A DNA stretch of 42,794 nt. Source: Candidatus Nealsonbacteria bacterium (lineage in GTDB: Bacteria; Patescibacteriota; Minisyncoccia; Minisyncoccales; MHMH01). The notes under the pieces are model-generated. The model had not been told where the DNA came from and ran no database searches. It saw only the letters and a program-made list of their open reading frames with translations. A program made the position numbers and the translations under genes. Positions within the stretch are counted from its first letter, which is position 1. Each line of letters starts with the position of its first letter. The stretch covers positions 1 through 42,794 of the forward strand of contig JACOYG010000001.1 in NCBI GenBank assembly GCA_016181985.1, in the 5' to 3' direction. Of this stretch, positions 8,313 through 32,407 are shown one piece after another.

Positions 8313-8474
8313 ATTTAGTATATTATTAATTTATTATTGTTATTATAGATGTTAATAAATAAATTTTTTATACTTAATTGAATATAAATTTATCCTGTGA
8401 AAATATATTATTTAATTAAATTAATAAACTGTTAATTAAAAATTAAAAATTAAAAATTAAAAATTATCCACAAT
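8313..8474. other. Candidate oriC segment (AT-rich dnaA-dnaN spacer with DnaA box and tandem heptamers)
   Basis: Perfect consensus DnaA box TTATCCACA at 8464-8472, directly preceded by four tandem TTAAAAA heptamers (8436-8463). The whole spacer is almost pure A/T. Confidence 0.6.
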
Positions 8475-10091: not shown

Positions 10092-10165
10092 TAGGCGCTA
10101 GGGATTAGGGTTTAGCGTCTAGTGAGTTAAGACTAGACGCTAATTAACTAGACGCTAGACGCTAA
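10092..10165. repeat. TAGCGTCTAG-family repeat block A (rpmH-rnpA spacer)
   Basis: TTAGCGTCTAG (10112-10122) and CTAGACGCTAA (10133-10143) form a perfect 11 bp hairpin. Further CTAGACGCTA copies follow. Same motif set as blocks at 13419, 14618 and 15022. Confidence 0.8.
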
Positions 10166-10171
10166 TATTTT

Positions 10172-11187: not shown

Positions 11188-11644
11188 CACAGAGAAAATT
11201 CAAGACATCATTAAGGAGTTTTTCAGTAAAACCGGAATTGCTCTTGAAGGGATAGAAATAAAAACTCCGCTCGATTCAACTATCCCCATTAATTTAAAAA
11301 TGGAGGAGCCTCAGACTTTAATCGGCGAAGGAGGGCAGACCCTCATGGAAGTGCAGCGTCTCTTGAAGATGGTTTTGCAGAGGAAAATTGCCTCGGACGC
11401 CCATTTTTATATCGACCTGGACATTAACGATTATAAGAAGAAAAAGACCAATTATTTGAAGGAAATGGCCAGATCGACCGCCGACGAGGTGTCTTTGGTT
11501 AAAAAAGAAAAATATCTGCCGGCAATGTCAGCTTACGACAGGAGGGTCGTTCATGTGGAGTTGGCCTCCAGGCAGGATATTGTGACCGAAAGCGTGGGCT
11601 ATGATCCGGAAAGAAAGGTGGTTATCAGGCCGCGGCTTCTTTAG
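11174..11644 (+). CDS. jag: Jag/KhpB-type RNA-binding protein (KH + R3H domains)
   Basis: 156 aa. R3H region LPAMSAYDRRVVHVEL. Follows yidC as in many bacteria. Confidence 0.8.
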   Translation: MSQTNTEKIQDIIKEFFSKTGIALEGIEIKTPLDSTIPINLKMEEPQTLIGEGGQTLMEVQRLLKMVLQRKIASDAHFYIDLDINDYKKKKTNYLKEMARSTADEVSLVKKEKYLPAMSAYDRRVVHVELASRQDIVTESVGYDPERKVVIRPRLL

Positions 11645-13418
11645 CCGCTTTTTTTATTTCTCTTAATTCTTTAACTTCTTCGGGGGCCGTGGTAATGAAT
11701 TTATTCTCGGCATCGGAAGCCACCACTTTTAAGGCGACATGTTTTTGTCCGGCGAAGAAAAGCCCCTCCCCCACCTGCGCGCCGGTGAGTAATTCTTTTT
11801 CCCAATCCGTCAGGTTGAATGTTTTTTGAACAACGCCGGCGGTTGAAGGGCTCTGTTTCATTAAAAATTGCAGAGAAGAGTTTGAAATTATCGGCTGGCC
11901 GTATTCCGATCTCATGAAATCGCTGACGTCCTGGGTGATTGTGGTCACTCCCAGCCAGTATTTTCTGGCCCTTTTGACTAATCCGAAAAGGAAAGACGCT
12001 CCGTCTTCGGAATGCATCAGCCACCAGGCCTCGTCAACCACCATAATCCTCTTTTTCAATTCGGAGCGTATTTTGTTCCAAATATAACGGGTGATGATAT
12101 ACATCGCCATGGGGCGCAACCCCTCTTCCATGTCTCTGATGCCAAAAGCCACGAAAGTATTATCCATTTTAACGGTAGACGGCTTATTAAAGAAATTAGC
12201 GTAAGTTCCTTTGGTGTATTTTCTGACGCGCCTTACCAAAGACTCGGTTCCTTCCATGGTGTTTAATACTGCTTCCATGTCGGACATTAAAGGCGGCTCG
12301 GCTTGAGAGAAATCTGAGGCAGGCGTGATATCTTTAGCCGCGTAAGTTTCGGTAATCGCCCGATCCATAATGGCATCTTCTTCGGGGGTGAGCCCGCCGA
12401 GCATTAAACGCATCAATCCTACCAAGTTGATAATATTTGACCTTAGTATGTCTTCGGGTTTTTCGTCTTCTCGCGGGATGGGCAAATCAAAGGGATTGAT
12501 ATGATGAGGGCTGGCCAGAGACATTTTAAAATAAGAGCCGCCGACCGCGTCTGATAATGATTCGTACTCGTTTTCGGGGTCGACAACAATAACATCCGTG
12601 CCCAGCATTAAAGAACGAAGAATTTCCACTTTAACGAAATAGCTCTTTCCGGAACCGGACTGGGCAAAAATCACCATATTGGCATTGGGCATGGAAAATC
12701 TGTCGAATAAAACCAAAGAGTTGTTGTGTTGGTTTATGCCGTAAAGAATGCCTTCGTTCGAGCTTAAGTCAAAAGAGACAAAAGGAAAAATACTGGATAA
12801 GGGGCCGGTGTTCATCGGCACATTGACGTCTAGCTGGTCCAAACCATAAGGAGAAGTTGAAACAAATCCCTCTTTTTGCTGGTAAAGAGAGGGCTTAATG
12901 TATATTAATTTTGATTCCAACATTGATCTAAGAGTGGTTTCAATGCTGTCCAATTCCTGCTCTTGGTCGGCGTAGACGGTCAAATAGAGCCCCAGCCTAA
13001 ACATTCTCTCTTGGGCAGTTTGAAGGCGGTCTCTTAGCTCTTCAATGTCCCTGTAGGCGGTTTCCAGGGCAGGATCCCTGACCAGGCCCTTGGATTCTCT
13101 TTCCATCAGCTCGGCCTGGATCTCCGTTACTCTTTTTCGCAGTTGTTTTAGAATCAAGCCGGCTTCAATGGGATGGATGAAAAAAGAGATATCCATCGGC
13201 ATATCTAAATTAATAATAGGAGAGAACCAGCCGGCCGTAAGATACCGAGGATAAGAGAAGATAAAATAAGAGCGGGCGAATCTCTCGCTTAATTTCAAGC
13301 TGGACTGATTTACTTCAATCGAAGCGGGCGCCACAATGTCCACCGCTCTGATCGCCTCGGTTTCAAAAATCTCTTCTTCCGGTATTTCTGTTTTTTTCTT
13401 TTTATTGAATAATTTCAT
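11625..13418 (-). CDS. VirB4/TraC/PrgJ-type T4SS ATPase, central + C-terminal (ATPase) part of a split gene
   Basis: 597 aa. Walker A AQSGSGKSY and Walker B RIMVVDEAWWLM. The N-terminal segment (APASIEV..YFIFSYPRYLTAGWF..DISFFIHP) matches the mid-region of Gram-positive VirB4 homologues. Confidence 0.85.
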   Translation of the reverse strand: MKLFNKKKKTEIPEEEIFETEAIRAVDIVAPASIEVNQSSLKLSERFARSYFIFSYPRYLTAGWFSPIINLDMPMDISFFIHPIEAGLILKQLRKRVTEIQAELMERESKGLVRDPALETAYRDIEELRDRLQTAQERMFRLGLYLTVYADQEQELDSIETTLRSMLESKLIYIKPSLYQQKEGFVSTSPYGLDQLDVNVPMNTGPLSSIFPFVSFDLSSNEGILYGINQHNNSLVLFDRFSMPNANMVIFAQSGSGKSYFVKVEILRSLMLGTDVIVVDPENEYESLSDAVGGSYFKMSLASPHHINPFDLPIPREDEKPEDILRSNIINLVGLMRLMLGGLTPEEDAIMDRAITETYAAKDITPASDFSQAEPPLMSDMEAVLNTMEGTESLVRRVRKYTKGTYANFFNKPSTVKMDNTFVAFGIRDMEEGLRPMAMYIITRYIWNKIRSELKKRIMVVDEAWWLMHSEDGASFLFGLVKRARKYWLGVTTITQDVSDFMRSEYGQPIISNSSLQFLMKQSPSTAGVVQKTFNLTDWEKELLTGAQVGEGLFFAGQKHVALKVVASDAENKFITTAPEEVKELREIKKAAKEAAA

Positions 13419-13499
13419 GTTTAGTGCTTAGTGAATTAGCGTCTAGCGTTTAGTGAATTAGCGTTTAATTCTAACTCACTAGACGCTAGACCCTAGCCG
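13419..13499. repeat. TAGCGTCTAG-family repeat block B, exactly filling the gap between the two VirB4 ORFs
   Basis: TTAGTGAATTAGCGT occurs twice in tandem, followed by the inverse unit AACTCACTAGACGCTAGA. TAG/TGA/TAA stops occur in every frame. Confidence 0.8.
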
Positions 13500-14159
13500 C
13501 TACTTTGCCAGTTCCGGAGGAATTTCAGGGTAATAGCCGACTTCGGCTTGCTTCGGGTGGTGCAAGCTCCAAAAAAGCTCAACAATCTCAGGCGTAGTCA
13601 AGGGCATGGCCTGAAGTCCGCATCTTCTTAACCCCAAGGCCACGAATTCCATTCTCTGCCATAATTGCTGTTTGGCCATCTGAAACTTTTCTTCGGTCAA
13701 AATGGGCAGCTGTGGCGTTCTTAAGAGCTTACCAGCATCGGCTCCTTTAGTTTCCAATAAAGTAAAAGGCACCACCACAAAAAAGTTTTTTGACATGATT
13801 TCTCCATATCTCCCGACCGGCGGAGCGCCCGAAACCACATCTTCGATAAATTTTCGGTACGCCGTAGTCTGGATTTTAAGAAGTTCGTTGGTTTGTTTCG
13901 CTTCCAGCGCCTTAATGCCGTCTATATAGCCGGTTATATTAAGCCGGCGCGATTGGATGATAATTTGCAAATCAAAATCCAGAGAATTTAAAAATTCCTG
14001 GAACTGATAAATAATGGAAGATTGCTCTTCGTCCGACTTTAAAGCGAAATTCAAAGAAGAAACCATCATAATGGCTCTCAATGCCTTGTTTTTCAGAATG
14101 GCTACGCCTTCTCTTATCTGTTCTATTTCCAAGAAATCTTGTGTGGATGAAACTTGCAT
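13500..14159 (-). CDS. VirB4 N-terminal domain protein (separate ORF)
   Basis: 219 aa. STQDFLEIEQIREGVAILKN..LNFALKSDEEQSSIIYQFQEFLNSLDFDLQIIIQSRRLNI follows the pattern of the first ~200 aa of Tn916-Orf16/PrgJ/TcpF-type VirB4 proteins. 219 + 597 aa equals a normal full-length VirB4. Confidence 0.65.
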   Translation of the reverse strand: MQVSSTQDFLEIEQIREGVAILKNKALRAIMMVSSLNFALKSDEEQSSIIYQFQEFLNSLDFDLQIIIQSRRLNITGYIDGIKALEAKQTNELLKIQTTAYRKFIEDVVSGAPPVGRYGEIMSKNFFVVVPFTLLETKGADAGKLLRTPQLPILTEEKFQMAKQQLWQRMEFVALGLRRCGLQAMPLTTPEIVELFWSLHHPKQAEVGYYPEIPPELAK

Positions 14160-14209
14160 AATGTTGAAATTGTTCGATTTGAAATTGTTCGATTTCGTAA
14201 ATCGAACAA

Positions 14210-14614
14210 TTAGTGTCCGACCTGGTCGGAAAGGTCTTTTAGCTTGCTCTTCCCCACCGCCGTGGGCACCGGGCTTTCTCTAATTCCCGCAGCTTCCGGT
14301 TTTTTAGCCTGGATTAATTTTAAAGGTGGCCCCACTTTTTTCTTCCAGAGATATATTTTGGGCCGCATGCGGTAAATAAAAATATTTTTAATGACTACGG
14401 GCAGGGGCCTGCCGTTGGATTTTCCAAAAGCCAATATGGCGGCGAAAGAAAAAATGACAAGCGACGCCATGATAAAGAAAAAAAAGTGTATGGTGAAATA
14501 AAGAACAAAGCAAATTGCCCCGGCTGTTCCGACATAAATAAACTGTTGAAAAGTCATGGGGCCTATCACCTTGGCCTTCTCCTCAATAAATTGTGGCACG
14601 GTAAATTGATCCAT
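14210..14614 (-). CDS. PrgI-family / VirB3-like small membrane protein
   Basis: 134 aa. N-terminal VPQFIEEKAKVIGPMTFQQF, then two TM helices, then NGRPLPVVIKNIFIYRMRPKIYLW. This is the layout and motifs of PrgI-like proteins encoded next to VirB4. Confidence 0.65.
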   Translation of the reverse strand: MDQFTVPQFIEEKAKVIGPMTFQQFIYVGTAGAICFVLYFTIHFFFFIMASLVIFSFAAILAFGKSNGRPLPVVIKNIFIYRMRPKIYLWKKKVGPPLKLIQAKKPEAAGIRESPVPTAVGKSKLKDLSDQVGH

Positions 14615-14617
14615 TAT

Positions 14618-14657
14618 TTTAGTGAGTTAGCGTCTAGCGTTTAGTGAGTTAGTGAAC
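14618..14657. repeat. TAGCGTCTAG-family repeat block C (left inverted arm of the four-helix-bundle cassette)
   Basis: TTTAGTGAGTTAGCGTCTAGCGTTTAGTGAGTTAGTGAAC. Its reverse complement resembles block D on the other side of the 14649-15017 gene, and it overlaps that gene's last codons and stop. Confidence 0.8.
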
Positions 14658-15017
14658 GGGCGGTTTATTTTCTAATTTATTAATTAAAACATTCAACATT
14701 TTTTGTATTTCTTCCAACAGCGCGTTAGCGGCTTGGGATTTAATATTCGGATATAATTCTTCGCCGATTATCAATTGCGTTTCCAGTTCGGCAGAAGAAC
14801 CATAGCTGATTCTCAAAAATTGCAAAAATTCTTTCCGATTTTTTCTTAAATAACCTTCGGCAATGTTCGAAGGGATGGATACTGCCGCCCGTCGCATTTG
14901 GTTTGATAGCCCGTAGGTTTCATCCTTAGGAAAGCCGCTCGTTAATTCGTATACTTTCTTAACTAAGCCAATAGATTTTTGCCATACCGTTAAATCCTTG
15001 TAAGATTTTAAATACAT
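14649..15017 (-). CDS. Four-helix-bundle protein (23S rRNA intervening-sequence protein family; Avd-like fold)
   Basis: YKDLTVWQKSIGLVKKVYELTSGFPKDETYGLSNQMRRAAVSIPSNIAEGY...SYGSSAELETQL is the family signature. ATG at 15017 preferred over the GTG at 15026 used by the ORF track. Confidence 0.9.
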   Translation of the reverse strand: MYLKSYKDLTVWQKSIGLVKKVYELTSGFPKDETYGLSNQMRRAAVSIPSNIAEGYLRKNRKEFLQFLRISYGSSAELETQLIIGEELYPNIKSQAANALLEEIQKMLNVLINKLENKPPVH

Positions 15018-15021
15018 AACA

Positions 15022-15085
15022 GTCACTAAACGCTAATTCACTAAACACCGGTTCACTAGACGCTGACTCACTAGACGCTAACTTA
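15022..15085. repeat. TAGCGTCTAG-family repeat block D (right inverted arm of the cassette)
   Basis: GTCACTAAACGCTAATTCACTAAACACCGGTTCACTAGACGCTGACTCACTAGACGCTAAC. Opposite orientation to blocks B and C. Confidence 0.8.
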
Positions 15086-15550
15086 CTACACAATGGGTTC
15101 ATGATAAACGTCTTTGCCCCGCGGCCTTGGCGGCTCCTCCCTTATTGGTTCTTCCTTGGCGGGAAGTGTCGTTGTTTTTTCTATTTCTGTTGGCTTGGCC
15201 TTATCGATTATTTGATTTTTAAGATCGTCCGCCATTTTTTGCGCTTCTTTTTTTGAGATGTTCAAACTTTTCCCTAATAATTCCGGCAAATCTTTAAATG
15301 AAATTTTACCTTCCACGCAATTCATGACTAATCCCGATATTTTAGTCCCGGGCAGATTTTCAAAGATTCTGCTTCTTTCGCTCGGGGCATTAAGACCGGT
15401 TGATTCAATAAATTTTTTAATACCCTCGTCTTGATCTTTTTGTAGTCCATATTCTTCCAGTAATTTGGTGATTATTAAACTGCTTTCTTCCGGAATGTCA
15501 AAATCTCTCGTTTTTTCTAAGATTTCATTATCGCTATTTTTGTTTATCAT
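15086..15550 (-). CDS. Hypothetical soluble acidic protein in the T4SS-like operon
   Basis: 154 aa ORF packed tightly between the VirB6-like gene and repeat block D. No TM segment and no recognisable motif. Confidence 0.55.
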   Translation of the reverse strand: MINKNSDNEILEKTRDFDIPEESSLIITKLLEEYGLQKDQDEGIKKFIESTGLNAPSERSRIFENLPGTKISGLVMNCVEGKISFKDLPELLGKSLNISKKEAQKMADDLKNQIIDKAKPTEIEKTTTLPAKEEPIREEPPRPRGKDVYHEPIV

Positions 15551-15559
15551 AACTTTATA

Positions 15560-17401
15560 TTAAACTTTCCACTTCGGGTTTGTCGACATTTTTTTGATTT
15601 GCTTTCCAAGGCCAATAGGAAGACTCGTGGCGTTGTTTAACGTTTTAAGAATCTCCTTTTTAATCTCGGGTTTTGCGTGCCGTGTTATATCCTCAAATTT
15701 TGCGTCATCTTCCAATATATGGACGACCACTTCGCTGTTTTGATATGCTTCTTTCTGTGTCTTTTCCAAAAGATCCTTAGTGGTCATTTTATCTAACGCC
15801 TCGATAATTGTTTTGCCTATTTTCGGAGCCAGGTCCGGTCTCCTTTCCATAATTTTATCCGGACTGACTCCCTTTCTGACCGCTTCCGCGATAAATTTTT
15901 CTTCATTTGCGCCGATTTTCCCTTCCTTGGTTATAATATCTATAATAGCCGCTATCTTACCGGAGCTGCGAGCTATTTTTTTAGAGTCTTCTTTTAACAA
16001 TTCGGCCTGCAAATAATTTCTTCTATCTTCAGTATCTTTTGGAGCCCTCTTAAGTATTCTTGCTTTATCTTCCGCAAGAGTAGCTTCTTCTATTGATCGG
16101 ATCTTGGCTTGGGCGATTTCGCGTCTCCTGGTCCATGCCCCCAGCTGGGATTGTTCTCTCGGCGTAATGGTGCCGGCTGCTTCCTTCGCCTTTAATGGCG
16201 TAATTATTCTCTCCGCCGCCTTAGCTCTTTCGCCTTCTTGCCATGTCCTACCTCTTAGCGTGGCTTGTTTCGCTTTTCCGGCTAAGTAGCCGGTGCCTCC
16301 AGATATTGCCATGCCCCCTAATTTCCAAAAGTCGTCCATTGCGGCCGGGCTCATTTTTTTAGCGATAGTTAAAGTAAAGACTAAATAAACAATCAAAAAA
16401 ATGAACTTCGAATAATCGGCAGCAAGATTAGTGCCCCTTATATTAAAAGCCGTTGCCGGAGCCACGGCAGCAAAAAATTTTAATCCCAAACCCATTACGA
16501 AAAAAACCACAACTCCCAAAAATGTCCACTGGAATAAGGCTCCGAGCCATTGGCGAAAATATTTTTGGGTTTGAGGCAGTATATAGGCCGCAAAAGCCAA
16601 GGGGGCCGAAACGGCTAATAACCAAATAATGGCTATTCTTAATAAAAACAACAAAGCATAGACCAAGAAAACGAGCCCGCCGACAATACTGAATGCCCCT
16701 AAAATAAATGTTTCGCTGAATGTTCCGAATAGGCCCTCTCCTAAAACTGCTGTGCCAAAAAATATCAAGCGCGCTACGTTGGCGAATGGGATTAAGGCGA
16801 CGATATAGTATGGCGCAAAAAACCAAGCGGCATACTCACCCACGGCTTTTGCTGCGGCTCCGGCCATTTGGCTGGCAATCGGTACCGCCATTCCGGCGGT
16901 TCCAAAAAAAGATTGCTTGAATGCATTTTGGACAACCCACCCCATATCAGCCACCATTTTGACCAAGAGTAAGCTAAAATTAACCAAGAGGGCTATGACG
17001 ATTAATCTGGGCAGGGCTTTTTTCATCCCAACATTTTCAGCTTTGAAGATGTAGGAGATGGCAATAAAAATAAAAATTAAAATAAAAGACATGTTTACCA
17101 GTCCGCTTGTAAAATGCCAACCGGCATTTACCAGGTCATTATTTAACCCTACGGGCAAGGATGACGCCCAATCCAAGAAGGCGGCTGAAAAAGAAATAAA
17201 GAATCCCCCCGCCAAGGCAAACATTAATAGATAAAAAAGCCAGGCTACGATCCGATCCAGAAAGTCTAGAGCGTCTAATTGCATTGAAGCCAGCGACGGG
17301 ATAACGTCAAAAAAAGCGTTGGCTTGCTGTAAACAAAAGAAAAGTCCAAAAAAGATAAGAAAAAAAACCGGAATTTTATTAAATCTAAAGATTTTCCTCA
17401 T
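15560..17401 (-). CDS. Polytopic membrane protein, VirB6/TrbL-like, with long charged C-terminal domain
   Basis: 613 aa. Signal-like N-terminus, about 8 or more hydrophobic helices over the first ~370 aa, then a Lys/Glu-rich soluble tail. The assignment rests on topology and position next to VirB3/VirB4-like genes. Confidence 0.55.
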   Translation of the reverse strand: MRKIFRFNKIPVFFLIFFGLFFCLQQANAFFDVIPSLASMQLDALDFLDRIVAWLFYLLMFALAGGFFISFSAAFLDWASSLPVGLNNDLVNAGWHFTSGLVNMSFILIFIFIAISYIFKAENVGMKKALPRLIVIALLVNFSLLLVKMVADMGWVVQNAFKQSFFGTAGMAVPIASQMAGAAAKAVGEYAAWFFAPYYIVALIPFANVARLIFFGTAVLGEGLFGTFSETFILGAFSIVGGLVFLVYALLFLLRIAIIWLLAVSAPLAFAAYILPQTQKYFRQWLGALFQWTFLGVVVFFVMGLGLKFFAAVAPATAFNIRGTNLAADYSKFIFLIVYLVFTLTIAKKMSPAAMDDFWKLGGMAISGGTGYLAGKAKQATLRGRTWQEGERAKAAERIITPLKAKEAAGTITPREQSQLGAWTRRREIAQAKIRSIEEATLAEDKARILKRAPKDTEDRRNYLQAELLKEDSKKIARSSGKIAAIIDIITKEGKIGANEEKFIAEAVRKGVSPDKIMERRPDLAPKIGKTIIEALDKMTTKDLLEKTQKEAYQNSEVVVHILEDDAKFEDITRHAKPEIKKEILKTLNNATSLPIGLGKQIKKMSTNPKWKV

Positions 17402-18819
17402 TAATATTGAAGATTAATCATTTTAACCGATCTAAAAAATGTTTCTCCGAAAGCTGACATGTCCCTAACCTCTTTAGAAACAACCACGGGCGGGTTGTCG
17501 GAATTCGCTCGGTAATTATCCAAAGAGTATAAAATCAATTGACAACTCCCTTCGGATTGTACCGACTTGACAGTTTCATTCAGGATTGGCACTCCGTTTT
17601 CCGGACCCTTAAGCGTCATAATTGGATTGGTATATTTAATGTCTCTATAAAGAGTCGATTCTTTACAATCGCCGCCTTGCTCTTCCTTCGGAAGGCTAAA
17701 CCCGATTTTCCATTCTTCTTGGTTGCCGGGCAGTTCCGGCATTTTTAATTTAGTTAATTGCGGATTAATAGTGTTGAGAATAAGGACTGAACCCAAAAGT
17801 AAAACCAAGCCCAAACCGGCGGACCTAATTCTGTCCATGGCTTCCTTCATCTTCCCGGCGTTACCGGCCGAAGTAAGATATTGGACTCCGGCTATAACTA
17901 AAGCAATAAAAGCAGCAAATCCGCCCAAAGAAATTCCCCAGTCATATATATATTTAATTAATCCGGGGATGTCGGTTTTTTCATTTAGTTTTGATCTGAG
18001 GGGTGAGTCAGGCCATGCAATTTCTAGCTTTCCGGTAGTTGATCCTGCGCCCGTGCCAGTCCCAGCCCCAGAAGTTCCCGGAGGCGGAGGACCAGCTATT
18101 TCGAAGGAATATGATTTATCACCAAATTTGCCCTTACTGTCTGTCGCCGTTATTGTGACTTGGTAGGTACCACCGAATGCGGGCGCTCCTTCTAATATTC
18201 CCTCGGAATTAAATTTTTCACCGGATTTTCCAAAAGATAGCCCGGGAGGGAGAGTGCCCTGGCCGCCCCACTTATAAGGAGGAGCGCCGTCAGTGGCCTG
18301 AAATTTTATTGTAAGATATTGATTTGCGGTTCCAGTGATGGGAGATGCTGGAGAAATAATATTTGGCGGCTTAGCCGATGCCGTGCCAGGAGCCGGCGCA
18401 GTGGCGGGAGCGATATTAATTGAGAAAGGTATTGTTCCAAAATTTCCTTGCGAATCTTCCAAAAATAACCTGAAAGCAAAACTCCCATCAAGATCGGGCG
18501 TTCCTTCGAGCAAGCCCGACAATTTGTTTACAGATAATCCACGAGGTAATGTTGTTTGATAACCCGATGGAATAGAGCCGGTGGGAGCTTGGACAACCGC
18601 GTTTTTATAAGGCAATAAAACGGAAGGGAAATATTTTTGTAAATTTTCTGAATAAGGGATGAATATTTTACCGTCATGCAGGGCGGTATAGCCAGACACA
18701 GGGCTCACTTGGCTAAAAACATTATTAATGCCGAAAAAAGCCGTGCCGATAATTATAAAAAATAAAATATAAAAAGATTTTTTCATACCCCTGCTTATAT
18801 TATTGCCGCTTCGCGGCAT
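17401..18819 (-). CDS. Secreted Ig-like repeat protein fused to a VirB2/TrbC-like pilin hairpin plus a C-terminal extra domain
   Basis: Start moved to the ATG at 18819 (AGGAG 6 nt upstream; extended -10 TGGTATAAT at 18839-18847; an upstream terminator lies inside the longer ORF). Putative-Ig motifs LPRGLSV..LEGTP and LPPGLSFG..GILEGAP. Pilin-like hairpin ISLGGFAAFIALVIAGVQYLTSAGNAGKMKEAMDRIRSAGLGLVLLLGSVLIL. Confidence 0.7.
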   Translation of the reverse strand: MPRSGNNISRGMKKSFYILFFIIIGTAFFGINNVFSQVSPVSGYTALHDGKIFIPYSENLQKYFPSVLLPYKNAVVQAPTGSIPSGYQTTLPRGLSVNKLSGLLEGTPDLDGSFAFRLFLEDSQGNFGTIPFSINIAPATAPAPGTASAKPPNIISPASPITGTANQYLTIKFQATDGAPPYKWGGQGTLPPGLSFGKSGEKFNSEGILEGAPAFGGTYQVTITATDSKGKFGDKSYSFEIAGPPPPGTSGAGTGTGAGSTTGKLEIAWPDSPLRSKLNEKTDIPGLIKYIYDWGISLGGFAAFIALVIAGVQYLTSAGNAGKMKEAMDRIRSAGLGLVLLLGSVLILNTINPQLTKLKMPELPGNQEEWKIGFSLPKEEQGGDCKESTLYRDIKYTNPIMTLKGPENGVPILNETVKSVQSEGSCQLILYSLDNYRANSDNPPVVVSKEVRDMSAFGETFFRSVKMINLQY

Positions 18820-18873
18820 AATTTTCTCCTTATTTATAATTATACCACTTTTATTGTTGTAAATGAACTGTGG

Positions 18874-18910
18874 AAAACAAAAGAGACCTAATTTAGTTAG
18901 GTCTCTTTTC
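18874..18910 (-). terminator. Rho-independent terminator after the 18919-19545 gene
   Basis: Minus-strand AAGAGACCTA / TAGGTCTCTT 10 bp stem followed by TTTGTTTT. Confidence 0.75.
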
Positions 18911-18918
18911 TTAATCAT

Positions 18919-19545
18919 TTAGCTTACCTTCCTGGCGTGATACAGCACGATGCCGGTTTGCTTTTTGCCGTATACGTCAGGCAGGACGATCGATCCTGCA
19001 TATTCCCCGCGCATTATAATCATATCGCCTTTTTGCAGTCTGCCGCCGGTGAACGGTAGTATGTCGGAGCTAGATCTTTCGATCTTTGCCATCAGTACTG
19101 TGCCGTTAACCTTTGGCCCGAAGAAAAAATAGAAGTAGAGGGGGTCTCCGTTGAACAAATCCCCTTCGTAGATTGCGGAAACATTAACAACGTCTCCGTT
19201 TTTGTATTTGCCGGCCTGAGCGTTAGCAATGAATTCCTCTGCGGTCATAATGCCATTTGGTGCCACAGTCGGCATGGGAGTCGGTGTCAGCGGCGTTTTA
19301 GTTGGGTTCGGCGTCGGGGCGTTTGCTGGCATGGCCGTCGGCGCAGTCGTTGGTGTGGCTGGCGTTGGCTTCACCGTCGGCGTCGTCGTAGGCGCAGCGG
19401 TCGGTACCACGGTCGGCGCTGGCGTCGCAGTCGGCGTTGGCTCGGGTTTCCCCTCGAAAAAGCCAGCGCTTAAAGCGGTGTAGGCGAATACTGACGCCGC
19501 GATTATGACGGCGACAATGATCCATATCAACTTTTTCTTGTTCAC
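18919..19545 (-). CDS. Membrane-anchored protein with Pro/Thr-rich linker and OB-fold-like (tRNA_anti-like) C-terminal domain; GC-rich
   Basis: GTG start with GGAGG 6 nt upstream. N-terminal TM, an ~65 aa PT-rich linker, then MTAEEFIANAQAGKYKNGDVVNVSAIYEG... resembling OB-fold tRNA_anti-like proteins. Base composition is clearly GC-richer than its neighbours. Confidence 0.6.
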   Translation of the reverse strand: MNKKKLIWIIVAVIIAASVFAYTALSAGFFEGKPEPTPTATPAPTVVPTAAPTTTPTVKPTPATPTTAPTAMPANAPTPNPTKTPLTPTPMPTVAPNGIMTAEEFIANAQAGKYKNGDVVNVSAIYEGDLFNGDPLYFYFFFGPKVNGTVLMAKIERSSSDILPFTGGRLQKGDMIIMRGEYAGSIVLPDVYGKKQTGIVLYHARKVS

Positions 19546-19577
19546 AAAGAACCTCCTCTCGGTTTAATTCTACATAT

Positions 19578-19606
19578 ATTATATCTCTTTATGTGCCCCC
19601 TGTCAA
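19578..19606 (-). promoter_or_regulatory. Consensus sigma70-type promoter for the 18919-19545 gene
   Basis: Minus strand reads TTGACA - 17 nt - TATAAT (plus-strand TGTCAA 19601-19606, ATTATA 19578-19583). Confidence 0.7.
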
Positions 19607-19622
19607 TAGCGAGAAAACCTAT

Positions 19623-20141
19623 TTAATCTTTCTTGATTACGGTATCTCCCCAGAAATCTTTTGTGATGGTTCCTTTCTTTTCCCCGTCTTTATCAGCTAT
19701 GACTCTGTCTCCCCAAAAATCATTTTTTATTTCTCCTTCTTTTTCCCCATCAGCACCCTTGATAATCTGTTTATTAAAACCACAAGAGTCATGGGTACCT
19801 TGCTCTATCCTGCCCACTTCTTTCCCGTCCTTATTTTTAATTATCTGGTCACCCGAGGATGCTTCTTTCTTGAGTCTTCCAACTTCTTCGCCGGAACTAT
19901 TCCTAAGTATTTTATCGTCGGATAAATCATCCTTGTCTAATTTTTCTGCGCTAAAAATAGGGTTTGCCTTGGACCCGGAGTCGCTGCAGGCGCTACCCAA
20001 CAGGCCCACAAGACCAGCTATTATTACTATTACGATAAATGCAATATAGGCAAGTATCACTATCGCGGCGATAATAGCAGCTACGATAATAACGACAAGA
20101 ATAACATCTAAAATCGTCATCCATATTGATCCTTTTTTCAA
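19623..20141 (-). CDS. Membrane-anchored protein with short DG-x3-G-x-I repeats
   Basis: TTG start with GGAGG 6 nt upstream. Long hydrophobic N-terminus, then repeats KDGKEVGRIE / ADGEKEGEIKNDFWGDRVI / KDGEKKGTITKDFWGDTVI. Confidence 0.55.
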   Translation of the reverse strand: MKKGSIWMTILDVILVVIIVAAIIAAIVILAYIAFIVIVIIAGLVGLLGSACSDSGSKANPIFSAEKLDKDDLSDDKILRNSSGEEVGRLKKEASSGDQIIKNKDGKEVGRIEQGTHDSCGFNKQIIKGADGEKEGEIKNDFWGDRVIADKDGEKKGTITKDFWGDTVIKKD

Positions 20142-20152
20142 TTTGCACCTCC

Positions 20153-20675
20153 CTATTCTTTAACTGTGACGCTATTTACGATTTTGTCAATATCCCCTGC
20201 CAGTCCTTGCCAGTATTTTTCTGGCGCAAAAAGAGATATTAAATAACCATCCCTACCGTCGAGTAGTATTTTTTCTTTAGAGAGAACAAAAGAACCGGCG
20301 GGATTTTTATATTTTAAATCAAGAATCCCTTCGTTTATTTCGATCTTTGACTCCAAGATCTCTACCGTCCAGCCGTTATTTTTGTTTACCTCCTCCATTT
20401 TTTTTAAAATCTCTACAATGGGAATTTCCAAGGAGTTCTTCCTGGTTTGTGGTCACCCAATCGCCAGGATATTCTATTTGGAATTTTCCATCGGGGCTTA
20501 TAAATTTTTTGGGCTCGCTTGTTTTCATCGTCGGAAATGTTTCTCGGAATTCTTTTGGCAAGACGTCTTGGAGCGACTTGGAAGCGGGTAAATTAGGCGC
20601 TCGCCAAATCGTCACCGCCATCAGCGCTGAAATTAGGAATAAAAAACCAAGGGATATAAGGATTGTTTTTTTCAT
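20153..20675 (-). pseudogene. Frameshifted gene for a membrane-anchored PsbP/DUF1795-like protein
   Basis: Track ORFs 20376-20693 and 20153-20431 overlap in different frames and read as one protein: ...FQIEYPGDWVTTNQEELL | EIPIVEILKKMEEVNKNNGW.... The second ORF only starts at an internal TTG, and the total length of 523 nt is not a multiple of 3. Likely true start is ATG 20675 (MKKTILISLG). Confidence 0.6.
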
Positions 20676-20677
20676 GT

Positions 20678-23122
20678 TTATATCGAGTACCAATTACCGA
20701 AAATTCCAACTTGATAACCGATTAATTTCAGGAATATGTTCACGAGCGTCCAAGCAATGGCAATAATAGCCATGCCAATTCCGGCTGATTTCCAAAGAGA
20801 TATTACTCCGGCCAAGGTGGCCGCCTTTCCTAAAGAAAAATAAAACATAAGGCCGGAGTATATTGTGAGCAACACTAAAATGACTGGCACCATCCTCAGC
20901 AAGAGAAAGTCAAAAATAATTTTAACCATTAAAAATACGTGTTTTACCTGGCAAGGCTCTCTTTCGTTCCAAGGCGTCTTGGGGTTATCCGTGTTTTTCC
21001 CGCAAGGTATCAGCCCCCCTTTGCTGGCCCCCGTCGGTTCGGTCAAATTAAAATTCCAAGAGCCAGACCAATTACTGGCCTCAACGCAGTTTTCGTCTAA
21101 ACAAGAACGCACCTGCCATTGATAATTTCCCAAGCAGTCTAACTTGATAAAAGCCGAATTTGTGTGAATAATTTGTGGCGATACTATTTCCTGCCCCGCC
21201 AATAATTTGCAGGATTCATTTACTTCGTCAGAAGACAGGGTTAGATATCGTATTTTATATTGGTATGTTTTAACTCCGGAGTTTTCGTTCCAAGAAACAT
21301 AATTTTGATCGGTTTGGAGTTGGCCGCCGTTTTCCGGCGATGGATCGGATGGTATGGGCAAGCGGAAGGTTGTAAATGTTTGAGCGGGACCATACTGGCC
21401 GCAGGCCCAGCCATCATGGGCGCAGGTTTTAACTTGCCAGTTATAATCTGCTTCTTGGCGCACATTGTATTCCGGATAAGCAATAGAAAACTCCGGCTTA
21501 TCGACGGTTTTTTCCAAATTCAAACCATCTCCGGAAATTTTTAAAATATATGACTTAGCCCCCGAGACTTCCTGCCATTTAAGATTTATTGGAATGGGAA
21601 CGCTGCTTGATCCCGGTGCGGGATTTTCTAAAATCGGCGGCTGGCCGGTAGTTTTGAAAGACCATTCTTGGCTAAAATTTTCGCATTTTGAGCCCACAAA
21701 ATCAGAGCAAGCCCTTACCTTCCATTTATAAATAGTATTTAATTTAAGAATATCTACGTCTAAAATATCTGATTGCGTCCCCTGGACTATAGTGGGAGCC
21801 CAATTATTTATCTGGTATACGAAAGAATTCATTCCTGGCGGCGAAGACCAACTTAGAGCAAAGGGGAATCCAATCGGGTTTTTTCCTTCCGGGTCATTTT
21901 GCGGAGAAACAAGAGAAATATCTTTGAAACTTTTTTGCTCGCTGGTAAAACTCCAGCGCTGGCTATAATCCTTGCACTCTCCCCCCGAGAGTCCGCCATC
22001 TTCATCGAGACAAATTTTTACTTCCCAGTCGTAGATCGTGTCTTTAGTGAAAAAATTAAGACCACTATCGGTAAAATCGGAATAAAGCAATTTTTCTATC
22101 TGATTGGGATCCCTGCGTTCTTTTCTTATTACCCAAGAATCGCACTGTTCTCCTTGCGATGCGTTGAATAAAACAGGCGAGCAGATTCTTTTTCCCCCTT
22201 CCTCTAAAAATACCCTGAACCGGTAAGATTTAGCTTCCTTAATGTCGCACCAGTCAATTTTTAAAGGTGAGTCGGGAGTTATTACCGCCGCGCCGCCTTT
22301 GGGGCCGGCCCAGTCGGGATCTTCCGGGGAAACGAGTTCCGGCGCCATGCCTGTCTTAAAGCTCCAAGCGCTGGCGGGGCCGCAGTTTTTTCCGTCAACC
22401 GAACAGCAGGCCTGGGCCTGCCAGGAATAATCAGTATTGGATTTTAAAAAACAAGCGCCTTTTTCTTCCCTCAAACCGCTATACTCGGATTTGGTCAGAA
22501 TTTCAGGAACAGCGCCGCCTTCGGTATTAAGCTGAAACAAGTATGACTTTGGACCATCGGGCGCTTTTAGCCAACCGACAACATCATTCCAATCAAACTT
22601 TACCGGCAGGAGGACGCTGGCGCTTCCCATGTCTTTATCTGCTTGGTCGGAATAATCGGGACTGTCGTAATAACGGGGATCTTTCGGCGCCTCCAAGCAT
22701 TGGCCGGCAGAGCACGAGCATGAAGGCAAGGTATCGTTATAATTCTTGGGGCCATAAGCCGATTTTCTGCTGATTCCTCCGGGTCCACAGGCTTGCCATG
22801 GCTGGCAAGACGAGCTTTTACTCCAATCTCCCTCTCGTATATTGTATTTGCAAGAATAAGAAGGACAATCTACTCCCGACGCGGACTCTAAGGTATACCA
22901 TTCAAATACGCGCCTTGTTTTAATATCGGCGCCCGTATCATTTGAGATCCCGCAAATACTAGAGCAAGTATATTCGTCCCAAACATTTGAATCCGGGCAA
23001 GTTGGCGGCGGAGGACAGACAACGCCTCCCCCACCTCCTTCTTCGGCATTGATTTTTCCGGGTAAAATAAAACCGGCTAAGCTTATTAAAAAAAATAACA
23101 AAAGAATATATGGCTTTTTCAT
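20678..23122 (-). CDS. Large secreted Cys-rich repeat protein (five Fn3/Ig-like modules) ending in a VirB2/TrbC-like pilin hairpin
   Basis: 814 aa. Signal peptide and a Cys-rich N-terminal region. Five modules each start l-W-x-v-x-gaKsY and end Y-x-W-x-V-x-x-C...C...W-x-F-x-T. The C-terminus LIPCG...PC-QVKHVFLMV...two TM helices parallels the free pilin at 31253-31681. Confidence 0.75.
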   Translation of the reverse strand: MKKPYILLLFFLISLAGFILPGKINAEEGGGGGVVCPPPPTCPDSNVWDEYTCSSICGISNDTGADIKTRRVFEWYTLESASGVDCPSYSCKYNIREGDWSKSSSCQPWQACGPGGISRKSAYGPKNYNDTLPSCSCSAGQCLEAPKDPRYYDSPDYSDQADKDMGSASVLLPVKFDWNDVVGWLKAPDGPKSYLFQLNTEGGAVPEILTKSEYSGLREEKGACFLKSNTDYSWQAQACCSVDGKNCGPASAWSFKTGMAPELVSPEDPDWAGPKGGAAVITPDSPLKIDWCDIKEAKSYRFRVFLEEGGKRICSPVLFNASQGEQCDSWVIRKERRDPNQIEKLLYSDFTDSGLNFFTKDTIYDWEVKICLDEDGGLSGGECKDYSQRWSFTSEQKSFKDISLVSPQNDPEGKNPIGFPFALSWSSPPGMNSFVYQINNWAPTIVQGTQSDILDVDILKLNTIYKWKVRACSDFVGSKCENFSQEWSFKTTGQPPILENPAPGSSSVPIPINLKWQEVSGAKSYILKISGDGLNLEKTVDKPEFSIAYPEYNVRQEADYNWQVKTCAHDGWACGQYGPAQTFTTFRLPIPSDPSPENGGQLQTDQNYVSWNENSGVKTYQYKIRYLTLSSDEVNESCKLLAGQEIVSPQIIHTNSAFIKLDCLGNYQWQVRSCLDENCVEASNWSGSWNFNLTEPTGASKGGLIPCGKNTDNPKTPWNEREPCQVKHVFLMVKIIFDFLLLRMVPVILVLLTIYSGLMFYFSLGKAATLAGVISLWKSAGIGMAIIAIAWTLVNIFLKLIGYQVGIFGNWYSI

Positions 23123-24084
23123 TATTTTATTCTAAAACTTTTTGTCAGATTGCGCCAATCGTCAATACTTAAAGTTTCGGCTCTTTGAGTCGGCTGGATA
23201 TTATTTTCCATAAGCCACTCCCCTATTTTTTCTTTCCCTGCGTCCAATCCTCGCGATAAATTATTTATTAATTGTTTTCTCGGCTGGGAAAATCCCGCCT
23301 TCACGATTTTAAAAAATTTACGGACGTCGGGCCTCTGTAAGTCTTGTGGTTTTGAGATGATTTTTAAGATGGCTGCATCTACCTCGGGTGACGGCCAGAA
23401 AGAGTTTCTAGAGATATAAGAGATAATTTTCGGCTCCGCATAGAATTGGACGGAAACAGCCAAGAGATTTAAGTCTGGCGGTTTGGCGCAAATTCTTTGC
23501 GCTACTTCTTTTTGCACCACCAGCGTCATATCCGTAGGTTTTGCCTCAACGTTCTCAAGGAGCTGACGAATCAGGTGGGCGGTGAGGTAAAAGGGAAGGT
23601 TGCCGACGACTTTAAAAGCACTAAATTCTAAATTCGAAATTCTAAACAAATCCAAAATCCCAAATTTCAAATCCAAACCACGTTTCGAATTTTGGAAATT
23701 GGAATTTAGATATTGTTTCGGATTTAGTGCTTCGGATTTCGAATTTCCCGGGACTAACTTCAAGATATCTCCGTAGATAATCTCCACATTTTTAAAGTCC
23801 TTCAGAGTTTCTTTCAGGATTTCCACCATATTCCGGTCTTTTTCTACGGCAATGACTTTTTTGGTTCTTTTTGCCAGCTCTTGGGTTAAAACGCCCAGCC
23901 CCGGCCCTATTTCTAGCACTACATCATCCGGCTGGAGGTCAGCTGCTTCAACAATCTTCCGAATAGCTGCCTTATCTGTTAAAAAGTTCTGGCCGAGCCC
24001 TCGCGACGGCTTGGCCTGGCGCGACTCTAACAGATTTTTGATATTTTTTACTGAAGTAAGCTCCATATTAGGATATTGTAGCAC
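23122..24084 (-). CDS. rsmA: 16S rRNA (adenine1518/1519-N6)-dimethyltransferase RsmA/KsgA carrying a ~45 aa insertion
   Basis: SAM motif VLEIGPGLGVLT and VVGNLPFYLT motif. 320 aa is long for the family. The stop overlaps the start of the downstream adhesin-pilin gene (TAATG). Confidence 0.9.
   Translation of the reverse strand: MLQYPNMELTSVKNIKNLLESRQAKPSRGLGQNFLTDKAAIRKIVEAADLQPDDVVLEIGPGLGVLTQELAKRTKKVIAVEKDRNMVEILKETLKDFKNVEIIYGDILKLVPGNSKSEALNPKQYLNSNFQNSKRGLDLKFGILDLFRISNLEFSAFKVVGNLPFYLTAHLIRQLLENVEAKPTDMTLVVQKEVAQRICAKPPDLNLLAVSVQFYAEPKIISYISRNSFWPSPEVDAAILKIISKPQDLQRPDVRKFFKIVKAGFSQPRKQLINNLSRGLDAGKEKIGEWLMENNIQPTQRAETLSIDDWRNLTKSFRIK
23614..23748. repeat. AT-rich palindromic repeat element inserted in frame inside rsmA
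   Basis: Terminal arms AAGCACTAAAT (23616-23626) / ATTTAGTGCTT (23722-23732). The reverse complement begins GAAATCCGAAGCACTAAATCCGAAACAA, matching the elements at 41028 and 42398. Translated as NSKSEALNPKQYLNSNFQNSKRGLDLKFGILDLFRISNLEFSAF. Confidence 0.8.
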
Positions 24085-24142: not shown

Positions 24143-25252
24143 ATGCTGAAACTAGATATGGATATACTGGATTGGTTGAAAAATAAGGCAAAAAACATCA
24201 AAATAGGGGGTTTAATGGCAAAACATAGGGGATCTCTTAAGGACCCCTTCCTTTATTTAGGCATATCCGCCGTTGTTTTGTATGGCATATTTACCCTTCT
24301 TATTCCGTCAAACGAGGCCATTTCCCCGTTTTTTACCGAAACACAGAGTACATCCGGAGGCACTTTCATTACCTCCACGGAAAAAGTTAAAGAATCTCCG
24401 GACTTAAGCATAATTCAAAAAAACAGCTTAGCTGCTATTTCCCCTCCTATTATGGTTACGCCGCAAGTTTTGGGAGCCCTAGCCGGAGGAGAGACTTACG
24501 AATCGCAGAATAAAGAGGTGGTAGAATATATTGTTCAGCCGGGAGATACTATTGGGTCAATCGCGGATAAATTCAATATTTCAGTGGAAACCGTCCTTTC
24601 GGCGAACAACCTTAGCAAGAATTCACTTATTCAGATTGGCCAGAAATTGGTCATTTTGCCGGTATCGGGCGTAATTCATTACGTTAAAAAAGGCGATACT
24701 ATTTCAGAAATCGCCCAGACATACAAGGCGAAAATAGATGAAATCATAGCCTTTAACGATCTGTCGGGCGAGGGCGACATAGCAATCGGAGACATTTTAA
24801 TTATACCCAATGGCGTGATGCCTCCGCCGGTAGTTTATGCTCCAAAAGCTATCCCTATAGCCAACAGTTATTTCATTTGTCCCATCGGACAGCCGTGTCG
24901 GATCACTCAGGGGCTGCATTGGTATAACGCCATTGATTTTAGCCACGGCAAATGCGGGGAACCGATATATGCCGCGGCAGCAGGAGAAGTTTTGAAGGTA
25001 AAACTTACTAGTTCTACTTCTAAATTGGCTTTCAGCGGAGCAGGAAATCATATGACTATATTGCATCCGAATGGAGCGGTTACCTTTTATGGTCACTTGC
25101 AGGCAGCATTGGTAAATCCGGGCGATTATGTTTCACAGGGGCGAATGATCGCCACGGTGGGTGGACAACCTGGCACTCCCGGAGCCGGCAAATCAACGGG
25201 TTGCCACCTACACTTTGAAGTAATCGGCGCCAGGAATCCGTTTAGTAAATAA
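24143..25252 (+). CDS. LysM-domain M23 family peptidoglycan metalloendopeptidase
   Basis: TM anchor, two LysM repeats (YIVQPGDTIGSIADKF..., HYVKKGDTISEIAQTY...) and an M23 catalytic region ending HLHFEV. True start may be an internal ATG (a -10-like TATGCT overlaps 24143). Confidence 0.85.
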   Translation: MLKLDMDILDWLKNKAKNIKIGGLMAKHRGSLKDPFLYLGISAVVLYGIFTLLIPSNEAISPFFTETQSTSGGTFITSTEKVKESPDLSIIQKNSLAAISPPIMVTPQVLGALAGGETYESQNKEVVEYIVQPGDTIGSIADKFNISVETVLSANNLSKNSLIQIGQKLVILPVSGVIHYVKKGDTISEIAQTYKAKIDEIIAFNDLSGEGDIAIGDILIIPNGVMPPPVVYAPKAIPIANSYFICPIGQPCRITQGLHWYNAIDFSHGKCGEPIYAAAAGEVLKVKLTSSTSKLAFSGAGNHMTILHPNGAVTFYGHLQAALVNPGDYVSQGRMIATVGGQPGTPGAGKSTGCHLHFEVIGARNPFSK

Positions 25253-31122: not shown

Positions 31123-31174
31123 ATATATTAATATCTTAGCACATAAATTTTATTATTGCAAAATTTATGATTTG

Positions 31175-31247
31175 TGCCCCCAGCAGGGCTCGAACCTGCA
31201 ACCTTCTCGTTAAGAGCGAGCTGCTCTACCAGTTGAGCTATGGAGGC
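31175..31247 (-). tRNA. tRNA-Lys (anticodon CUU)
   Basis: Hand-folded cloverleaf: acceptor GCCTCCA/TGGGGGC, D arm GCTC-AACTGGTA-GAGC, anticodon loop CTCTTAA, T arm GCAGG-TTCGAGC-CCTGC, discriminator A. No encoded CCA. Confidence 0.85.
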
Positions 31248-31252: not shown

Positions 31253-31681
31253 TTACGGAGTTTTGCACTGAATATTATACCATTTCCAGCCATTCCCCAA
31301 TTCAACAACCCCGATTTTATCAAACACGGTGTTAACAATAACCCAAGCGGCAAAAATAATCAAGAGGCCGACAACAGCCGCAGTGATTACCCCCTTAGCT
31401 TTGTTAAAAGCATCGGCTTTTGCTCCGGCAAAAAGCAGCAACACCCCGCCGATTATAAACATCAGAGACGCCACGGTCGGAACCACCCAAGTGAATATCC
31501 ACTCAAGGAGATTGCTACCCATCACAAAAATATCGCAGAACTCGCAAGGCACATAACCTAATGTTGCATCTATGCGGTTAGCCGGTTCAACAATCCCCGG
31601 TCCGCAGGTCACTAAGGCTGCTTGGACTTGGCTAATTCCCAAAAATAAAAACAAAAAAATTACTAAAAATATTTTTTTCAT
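31253..31681 (-). CDS. VirB2/TrbC-like T4SS pilin (free-standing)
   Basis: 142 aa. Signal peptide, LVTCGPG...PCEFCD motif, then two TM helices separated by the basic loop AGAKADAFNKAKG. Same architecture as the C-termini of 20678-23122 and 17401-18819. Confidence 0.75.
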   Translation of the reverse strand: MKKIFLVIFLFLFLGISQVQAALVTCGPGIVEPANRIDATLGYVPCEFCDIFVMGSNLLEWIFTWVVPTVASLMFIIGGVLLLFAGAKADAFNKAKGVITAAVVGLLIIFAAWVIVNTVFDKIGVVELGNGWKWYNIQCKTP

Positions 31682-32329: not shown

Positions 32330-32407
32330 GGTTATATCTTAACAGATTTATCGGCATTCTGCTAGGTTTCGCGCCCGAATAAAGGAGAACTGTTCTCCTT
32401 CGCTGTA

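Follow-up and report, generated by a model that had tools for sequence, protein, structure and literature searches.

The closest described counterparts of the locus reported here are the type IV secretion systems (T4SSs) of Patescibacteria. In Southlakia epibionticum the T4SS genes SEML1_0006-0019, which include a series of pilins, are essential for epibiotic growth as judged by transposon sequencing, and the system is without recognizable coupling and relaxase proteins (Wang et al., 2023; PMC10633639). A survey of 3,035 Patescibacteria genomes placed the VirB4 proteins in a monophyletic clade inside the mating-pair-formation class MPF-FATA and found genes for TrsD, PrgI/VirB3, VirB6 and VirB2-like proteins near virB4, TrsD being the most abundant partner, together with very few relaxases; 5,713 VirD4-like genes were recorded in 2,918 genomes, nearly all of them far from virB4 (Quiñonero-Coronel et al., 2025; PMC12102498). 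According to the same survey, the T4SS genes lie near dnaA, dnaN, rnpA, KsgA and rpmH in Paceibacteria and Microgenomatia and are co-located with comF/recG/radA in the ABY1 class, and a 2025 review restates the points made for Patescibacteria T4SSs (PMC12857230). Here we describe a T4SS gene block at 11625-23122, on the minus strand of a 42,794 nt stretch of a Candidatus Nealsonbacteria bacterium (contig JACOYG010000001.1), which is referred to below as the window.

The block is probably a chromosomal, origin-proximal Patescibacteria T4SS that derives from monoderm MPF-FATA machinery and serves host contact and some form of transfer, and not conjugation. Both Wang et al. (2023) and Quiñonero-Coronel et al. 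(2025) arrived at a matching reading, so that the finding is not new; for this class the type of system and its details have both been published. The locus shares with the published systems an MPF-FATA-type VirB4, a TrsD-like protein, PrgI/VirB3 and VirB2-like pilins, with a putative VirB6, as well as the absence of a relaxase or type IV coupling protein (T4CP) nearby and the dnaA/dnaN/rnpA/ksgA/rpmH setting seen in Paceibacteria (PMC12102498, PMC10633639). The initial annotation, made from the sequence of the window, had proposed a stripped-down, non-conjugative VirB2-VirB3-VirB4-VirB6 machine; its open reading frames (ORFs) and their coordinates stand as given, the core is present, VirB6 as a putative member, and no T4CP or relaxase was found in the window, in agreement with the published accounts (PMC10633639, PMC12102498, PMC12857230).

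We compared the block with the best 80 of 114 related stretches, from a scan that used one genome per species. All 80 are metagenome-assembled genomes of Patescibacteria, among them Nealsonbacteria, Wolfebacteria, Nomurabacteria, Gribaldobacteria, Wildermuthbacteria, Doudnabacteria and other Paceibacterota, and their VirB4 proteins are 51-93% identical to the window copy. By these VirB4 relatives the host, earlier suspected to be a bacterium of CPR (candidate phyla radiation) type, is a Nealsonbacteria-like member of Paceibacteria, within the CPR/Patescibacteria. Within the window the genes are tightly packed between rsmA on one side and jag/yidC/rnpA/rpmH-dnaA-dnaN on the other, and the GC content of the block is close to that of its flanks, without a compositional shift. 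Gene order in the relatives, determined by tblastn with the window proteins, recurs in the 80 loci: rsmA, variable pilin or adhesin genes, VirB6, an acidic protein, PrgI, a VirB4 N-domain protein and VirB4. Downstream of VirB4 there are often further pilin-fusion genes, followed by jag-yidC-rnpA and dnaA-dnaN. Because this order recurs in the relatives, a mobile element is strongly argued against and a lineage-fixed chromosomal system is favoured, as had been proposed at the outset; the position among core genes beside the origin is kept in 80 species-level genomes across the range of VirB4 identity just given. The core genes of the block are all intact, and one accessory gene, the PsbP-like gene described below, is disrupted.

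The catalytic C-terminal two-thirds of the VirB4 ATPase is encoded at 11625-13418. It scores 359 bits against NCBIfam conju_CD1110 (E-value 4.6e-107, cut-off 325, profile positions 166-734), matches Pfam P-loop_TraG at 1.7e-24 and CagE_TrbE_VirB at 9e-4, and has intact Walker A (AQSGSGKS) and Walker B (VVDEAW) motifs, so that the VirB4 assignment comes through the profile hidden Markov model (HMM) check. With a score above the CD1110 family cut-off and Patescibacteria VirB4 as the closest comparison set, the protein appears to be of the MPF-FATA lineage type. The N-terminal domain of VirB4 is encoded by a separate, TrsD-like gene at 13500-14159, the product of which matches the N-terminus of VirB4_plasma (9.8e-8), positions 3-78 of the CD1110 profile and TrsD (2.8e-3). 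All 37 of its orthologues match the VirB4_plasma N-terminus and 33 of the 37 match TrsD, at best with 3.9e-10; the family profile found no match among Protein Data Bank (PDB) sequences.

VirB4 had initially been described as lying in two pieces. The two ORFs are real, but they do not reflect damage: in 78 of 78 related loci the N part and the C part each have an ORF of their own, in frames that vary and with spacers that range from an overlap to approximately 490 nt, which rules out a pseudogene. A two-gene VirB4 is the rule in these loci. In other genomes the TrsD-VirB4 spacer is 1-20 nt long or contains an ORF of the 23S rRNA intervening-sequence protein (IVP) or GxxExxY type, while that of the window is 81 nt and carries several stop codons and a stable hairpin. 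An alternative code, with UGA read as glycine, does not join the two parts, as the spacer has several TAG or TAA stops and TGA terminates five long ORFs.

The gene for the PrgI/VirB3-like small membrane protein (14210-14614) lies directly upstream of the VirB4 N-domain gene, an arrangement found in 73-74 of the 80 loci. Its product, which has a transmembrane (TM) hairpin at residues 24-66, matches Pfam PrgI above the cut-off (1.6e-8, 35.4 bits, cut-off 27), in line with the earlier assignment. A VirB6-like protein is present in 42-46 of the 80 loci, and in the window it is a 613 aa polytopic protein (15560-17401) with multiple TM segments within residues 4-351 and a long hydrophilic C-terminal domain, such that it may be described as an extended VirB6. 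The polytopic character ascribed to it at first is plain, while the family assignment to VirB6/TrbL draws on its relatives: the window copy alone matches TrbL weakly and below the cut-off (1.1e-3), TrbL is matched by 9 of 34 orthologues (best 1.8e-8), and in a search of the PDB with the family profile the only membrane protein among the matches was R388 TrwI/VirB6, with an E-value of 0.046.

Between VirB6 and PrgI is a gene (15086-15550) for an acidic, soluble, helical protein of 154 aa. It had been noted simply as a small acidic protein, which it is; it also belongs to a large uncharacterized family encoded just upstream of PrgI in 58 of the 80 loci, and lies between VirB6 and PrgI in the members listed. 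Members were recovered in the relatives with an iterated local profile, and a search of 1.84 billion representative sequences with the family profile returned 8362 members at E<=1e-3. Most members end in K-D-x-Y-R-E-P-I-E after a disordered linker, the window copy reading DVYHEPIV, and the DxYREPIE tail is nearly exclusive to the family, which accounts for 40 of its 41 C-terminal occurrences in these loci. In the related locus L027 an ORF that neighbours the acidic gene, at the PrgI position, likewise ends in DTYREES. Neither the protein nor the family has a match in Pfam, NCBIfam or the PDB sequences, and the structural check suggested for this ORF gave no fold: the AlphaFold2 (AF2) model has low confidence (pLDDT 62) and Foldseek returned nothing below E = 3. 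The acidic family with its fixed C-terminal tail is a fifth conserved core gene in these loci. It is unnamed in the Patescibacteria T4SS papers compared here, and may or may not equal a published profile hit such as PrgF.

Three window proteins contain a VirB2-like pilin domain. The first, a secreted protein of 814 aa (20678-23122), has a signal peptide and contains 30 cysteines. Its Cys-containing repeats, at least five in number, are of an immunoglobulin (Ig)/FN3-like type and each end in a WSF(K/T)-type motif; it also has a Pfam match to the Ig-like ChitinaseA_N and two C-terminal TM helices. Its C-terminal two-helix domain (residues ~734-799) is homologous to the 142 aa pilin described below (E-value 5e-11; 3e-10 with a local pilin HMM), and the earlier description of a pilin-fused Cys-rich adhesin is borne out; orthologues were found in five loci. 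The second, of 505 aa (17401-18918), had also been recognized as a pilin fusion. It comprises a signal peptide, two He_PIG Ig domains (2e-15), a pilin domain at residues ~318-389 and a Cys-containing C-terminal domain, and it matches T4SS_pilin above the cut-off (4.3e-7, 30.4 bits, cut-off 26.6) and the NCBIfam Mbov_0395 pilin-like family (2.9e-6); homologues are present in 44-51 of the 80 loci. The third is a stand-alone VirB2-like pilin of 142 aa at 31253-31681 on the minus strand, outside the range annotated initially, with a signal peptide, two TM helices and a T4SS_pilin match of 5.4e-7 (30.0 bits, cut-off 26.6). It is encoded 8 kb past rsmA, with a tRNA-Lys gene (31174-31247) directly downstream. 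No other pilin of the window is short, which makes this one a candidate for the major subunit.

A local HMM seeded with the three window pilin domains identified 87 pilin-domain ORFs in 53 loci, with a median length of 421 aa and a maximum of 2113 aa. Of these ORFs, 80 reach 250 aa or more, so that pilin domains fused to large domains are the norm in these loci. In most of them the hairpin follows directly after the signal peptide and is itself followed by a long extension, while of the two window fusions one has its pilin domain mid-protein and the other at the C-terminus. This distinguishes the clade from Saccharimonadia, in which the pilins are short and in tandem. In VirB2/TraA-type pilins both termini are on the outer face of the pilus. 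Because both ends of such a hairpin face outwards, domains fused at either end of the pilin would be extracellular, and by this analogy the display of large adhesins is topologically plausible.

The locus can also be compared with the MPF-FATA systems of Gram-positive bacteria, as represented by Prg/Pcf of pCF10, Trs of pGO1 and the CTn-type CD1110 system of Clostridium difficile. Common to both are a VirB4 above the CD1110 cut-off, TrsD, PrgI, a putative VirB6-type protein and a single-membrane architecture without VirB7/9/10. In contrast to those systems, no T4CP (PcfC/VirD4), relaxase, oriT, PrgL/VirB8-like protein, PrgK-type hydrolase or PrgB adhesin was detected here; VirB2-like pilins are present here and lacking there, and the locus is fixed among chromosomal core genes. 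Bordetella Ptl, Brucella VirB, Helicobacter ComB and archaeal Ced are likewise VirB4-centred and non-conjugative, with no adjacent T4CP and no relaxase, but Ptl, VirB and ComB are diderm systems with a VirB7-10 outer-membrane core and Ced is archaeal, and no homology with the present locus was found beyond VirB4, VirB3, VirB6 and VirB2.

Nearly all window ORFs of at least 100 aa that lie outside another gene were scanned against Pfam and NCBIfam, and our statements of absence refer to the window. No T4CP, relaxase, integrase or VirB8/9/10/11 was matched among the scanned ORFs, as the initial annotation had held for VirD4-type ATPases, relaxases and VirB8/9/10/11, and no att-like border was found for the block. 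In the 80 relatives the P-loop ORFs that lie up to 10 kb from VirB4 yielded no T4CP, with a few of them left unassigned or unscanned; those identified are ComM-like Mg-chelatase, AAA_14/DUF4143, RuvB, PilB, RadA, TyrS and Mur ligase proteins. The combination that would have marked an ordinary integrative and conjugative element (ICE), a VirD4 and a relaxase with element borders directly adjacent, is thus absent from the window, and the relaxase negative applies to the window ORFs, as the relatives were not systematically searched for relaxases. As we have only one 42.8-kb contig, the absence of a coupling protein cannot be concluded for the genome. A T2SSE fragment at 214-705 is of the PilB type and is ruled out as VirB11.

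No VirB8-like protein (PrgL/TraM, with an NTF2-like fold) was identified in the block. The sole bitopic candidate that was modelled is a 208 aa protein (18919-19545) with an N-terminal TM segment (residues 3-31), a Pro/Thr-rich linker and a C-terminal domain for which the AF2 model (residues 97-208) is confident, with a pLDDT of 90.9. Foldseek relates this domain to the oligonucleotide/oligosaccharide-binding (OB) anticodon-binding domains of LysRS and AspRS (E-value 1e-4), and because of this predicted OB fold the protein is ruled out as the missing VirB8. The structural check called for on this ORF therefore yielded a fold. The family is found in only four close loci, which places it outside the conserved core.

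It is possible to suggest how such a system might work. VirB4 hexamers would dock on VirB3 and VirB6 in the single membrane and, as in other T4SSs, would extract pilin-domain proteins from it; from these a structure may be built at the cell surface, across the thin wall, with the Ig-like and Cys-rich domains fused to the pilin displayed outside, where they would contact the host cell. The wall may be opened by an adjacent peptidoglycan endopeptidase with LysM (7.8e-26) and Peptidase_M23 (2.3e-19) domains, encoded on the plus strand at 24143-25252, divergently from rsmA, which it adjoins in 21 related loci as well. By analogy it is a candidate cell-wall remodelling partner in a VirB1-like role, and VirB1-like proteins with M23/LysM domains have been reported in Patescibacteria (PMC12102498). 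A bolder extension, to which we give little credence, is that in Paceibacteria VirB4 does not build a plain pilus but assembles VirB2-type hairpins, each carrying a large Ig-like or Cys-rich domain, into an adhesin-decorated fibre or surface array, a structure undescribed for any T4SS, and that the acidic protein with its DxYREPIE tail acts as a cytoplasmic adaptor that docks on VirB4 in place of a coupling protein.

Several points weigh against the assignment of a host-contact and transfer machine. A 2024 perspective calls the role of the T4SS 'completely unknown', with effector delivery or nucleotide uptake as suggestions (PMC11665869). Helical packing of the VirB2 type is doubtful for subunits with globular domains of 300-700 aa, and the pilin-fusion proteins may instead be membrane anchors or minor subunits. 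No VirB8-like or VirB1-like homologue is identified inside the block, and one accessory gene of the block is disrupted. Finally, a T4CP may be encoded elsewhere in the genome, as one is in most Patescibacteria genomes (PMC12102498).

This last point bears on the alternative that fares best, though we think it unlikely, namely a T4SS for effector or protein export that uses a distal VirD4-like coupling protein for delivery into the host bacterium and to which the pilin fusions are accessory. VirD4-like genes are common in Patescibacteria and nearly always distant from virB4, as noted above (PMC12102498), the rest of this genome is outside our view, and for Saccharibacteria a role in delivering effectors has been put forward (PMC10633639, PMC11665869). 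However, the distal t4cp homologue of S. epibionticum is not essential, unlike its T4SS genes (PMC12102498), neither a candidate effector nor a secretion signal emerged from the analysis, and the relatives have no T4CP within 10 kb of VirB4.

We consider it rather improbable that the system is an uptake device which, like Helicobacter ComB or archaeal Ced, imports DNA, nucleotides or further material of the host for whose synthesis the reduced genome is not equipped. VirB4 has a weak match to CedB (3.2e-13), but this is far below the cut-off and is generic P-loop similarity. The block does encode the OB-fold protein, predicted to be surface-anchored and of a nucleic-acid-binding type, although only four close relatives share it, and a ComEA-like gene is located at 1859-2374. 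Acquisition of nucleotides through a T4SS has been suggested (PMC11665869), and the comF/recG/radA setting in ABY1 points the same way (PMC12102498), but there is no direct evidence of import in any Patescibacteria. The synteny largely excludes a decaying ICE from which relaxase and coupling protein have disappeared, and we regard this reading as very improbable: the Firmicutes conjugative-transposon type of VirB4 (the CD1110 family), the disrupted gene and the small, selfish-looking cassettes inserted in the block could be taken to favour it, but the position between rsmA and jag/yidC/rnpA/dnaA recurs in 80 species-level genomes over the whole range of VirB4 divergence, the core genes are intact, integrase, att-like border and compositional shift are all wanting, and in a cultivated relative the homologues of these genes are essential (PMC10633639).

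Within the operon, the fast-evolving region is the end proximal to rsmA. The upstream neighbour itself, rsmA/ksgA (23122-24084, minus strand; Pfam RrnaAD 6.7e-57), precedes the T4SS block in 31 related loci, and the 1 nt overlap between its stop codon and the start of the adhesin gene at 23122, seen initially, is real and recurs in L002. The coupling to a ribosome-biogenesis gene that had been read from this overlap stands to that extent; co-transcription with rsmA is not the sole option for the distal genes, because a promoter-like site lies at 19578-19606 on the minus strand, a 12/12 match to the sigma-70-type consensus TTGACA-17-TATAAT that, as a pattern match alone, might serve as an internal promoter for the core genes that follow it. 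Between the adhesin gene and this site, two overlapping ORFs in different frames (20153-20693) represent a disrupted gene for a membrane-anchored protein. The frameshift reported earlier is supported by comparison with the intact orthologues of 211-218 aa in L002, L005, L006 and L040, relative to which the window copy is without approximately 37 codons (residues ~90-126) and changes frame; the resemblance to PsbP is itself weak, the L002 orthologue matching DUF3805 (3.3e-4) and PsbP_2 (0.019) below their cut-offs. The next gene (19623-20141) encodes a 172 aa membrane-anchored orphan with a hydrophobic N-terminal segment (residues 1-56) and short internal repeats, for which no Pfam or NCBIfam family and no homologue in the 80 related loci was found. 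Together with the 208 aa OB-fold protein it makes up the pair of small membrane-anchored proteins predicted initially, both of which have TM or hydrophobic N-terminal segments. Relative to the published Patescibacteria T4SSs, the lineage-specific extras here are the OB-fold anchor protein, the orphan membrane protein, the broken PsbP-like gene and an IVP cassette.

This cassette (14607-15101, minus strand) is inserted between the PrgI gene and that for the acidic protein. Its ORF, 14649-15026, earlier described as a four-helix-bundle insert, matches 23S_rRNA_IVP at 7.5e-36 and TIGR02436 at 1.4e-35, and is bracketed by inverted repeats whose arms (14607-14652 and 15026-15101) are made of a short repeat unit. 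Two 'empty' hairpins are made of this unit as well, one in the rpmH-rnpA spacer (10097-10166) and one in the TrsD-VirB4 spacer (13421-13502, minus strand; -35 kcal/mol, z = -6.55), both with z-scores of about -6.5. The statement that the window has no oriT-like repeat had thus overlooked strong inverted repeats at these two places and around 14649-15026, although none of them is tied to a relaxase. The four-helix-bundle ORF was also considered as the Avd of a diversity-generating retroelement and rejected, its Avd match (6e-5) being far below the Avd cut-off and far poorer than that to 23S_rRNA_IVP; no reverse transcriptase was found among the scanned window ORFs.

Across the loci there are 12 IVP ORFs in 9 of 80 (the window included), in varying spacers, and six GxxExxY ORFs in six loci. 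The operon strand carries all 18, and spacers of the T4SS operon hold the majority. Most have inverted repeats of 23-41 nt on either side, which vary in sequence from genome to genome and score higher than those around control genes. Examples in relatives are L001 572-1018, L028 9490-9978, L061 1396-1861, L063 9479-9950, L065 9527-9939 and L067 8108-8548. GxxExxY proteins are PD-(D/E)XK-like, and both they and IVP are typical of 23S rRNA intervening sequences, with which the cassettes share their architecture of an IVP or GxxExxY ORF within a long inverted-repeat stem. Those intervening sequences lie inside the 23S rRNA gene, whereas the cassettes here lie between protein-coding genes, and no rRNA gene is present in the window. 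The arrangement resembles a mobile cassette, made of a stem and an ORF, that exploits transcribed spacers; no description of IVP/GxxExxY cassettes as mobile elements was found in the literature searched.

The wider context is that of a core chromosomal region. On the VirB4 side the window carries a PilB fragment, ruvB, the comEA-like gene, yebC, ruvC, tyrS, a class A penicillin-binding protein gene, dnaN, dnaA, rpmH, rnpA, yidC and jag, and on the other side rsmA and genes for the LysM-M23 peptidase, a DksA-type zinc-finger protein, an amidase-GH3 fusion, polynucleotide phosphorylase and a NYN-domain protein. The dnaA-dnaN spacer (8313-8474) is likely to be oriC. Since its GC content is low, 12% in a 200 nt window, and it contains a perfect DnaA box (8464-8472), an origin beside the block is plausible, and the location next to the replication origin among core genes (rpmH, rnpA, yidC, jag, dnaA and dnaN) agrees with what had been claimed for it. 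The cumulative GC skew of the window has its minimum near 31-32 kb, at odds with an oriC at 8313-8474.

Some neighbouring genes deserve mention. The amidase_2 (AmpD-like) and GH3 (NagZ-like) fusion at 25913-28285 is unusual and recurs in seven loci; like the LysM-M23 protein it is an enzyme of peptidoglycan remodelling or recycling, and the two could serve the T4SS or cell-wall salvage. Between the 142 aa pilin gene and a tRNA-Arg gene, the region 31817-33331 encodes a Fic/DOC-domain protein (307 aa) with a repressor-like N-terminal region and an adjoining DUF6036 nucleotidyltransferase-like protein, which look like a toxin-antitoxin pair or a mobile pair of the 'mystery protein B' type. A 302 aa PHP-domain protein (37815-38723) has a marginal match to the Pfam ISL3 transposase family (23.3 bits, cut-off 23). 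In nine loci a ComM/YifB-type Mg-chelatase-like AAA+ protein of approximately 515 aa, which the window does not contain, is encoded 6-9 kb upstream of VirB4 (L013, L014, L016, L020, L021, L037, L048, L072 and L075, at ~0.7-4.3 kb of each), and its gene lies between dksA and the M23 peptidase gene where both were detected.

In summary, the locus adds no new kind of system, but it sharpens the parts list of the Paceibacteria T4SS, and it leaves as leads the fusion of pilins to large extracellular domains, the DxYREPIE tail of the acidic family and the IVS-like cassettes in operon spacers. In the single species examined so far the Patescibacteria T4SS is essential; annotated loci from other classes, such as this one, help to define its conserved core and its variable, host-facing part.

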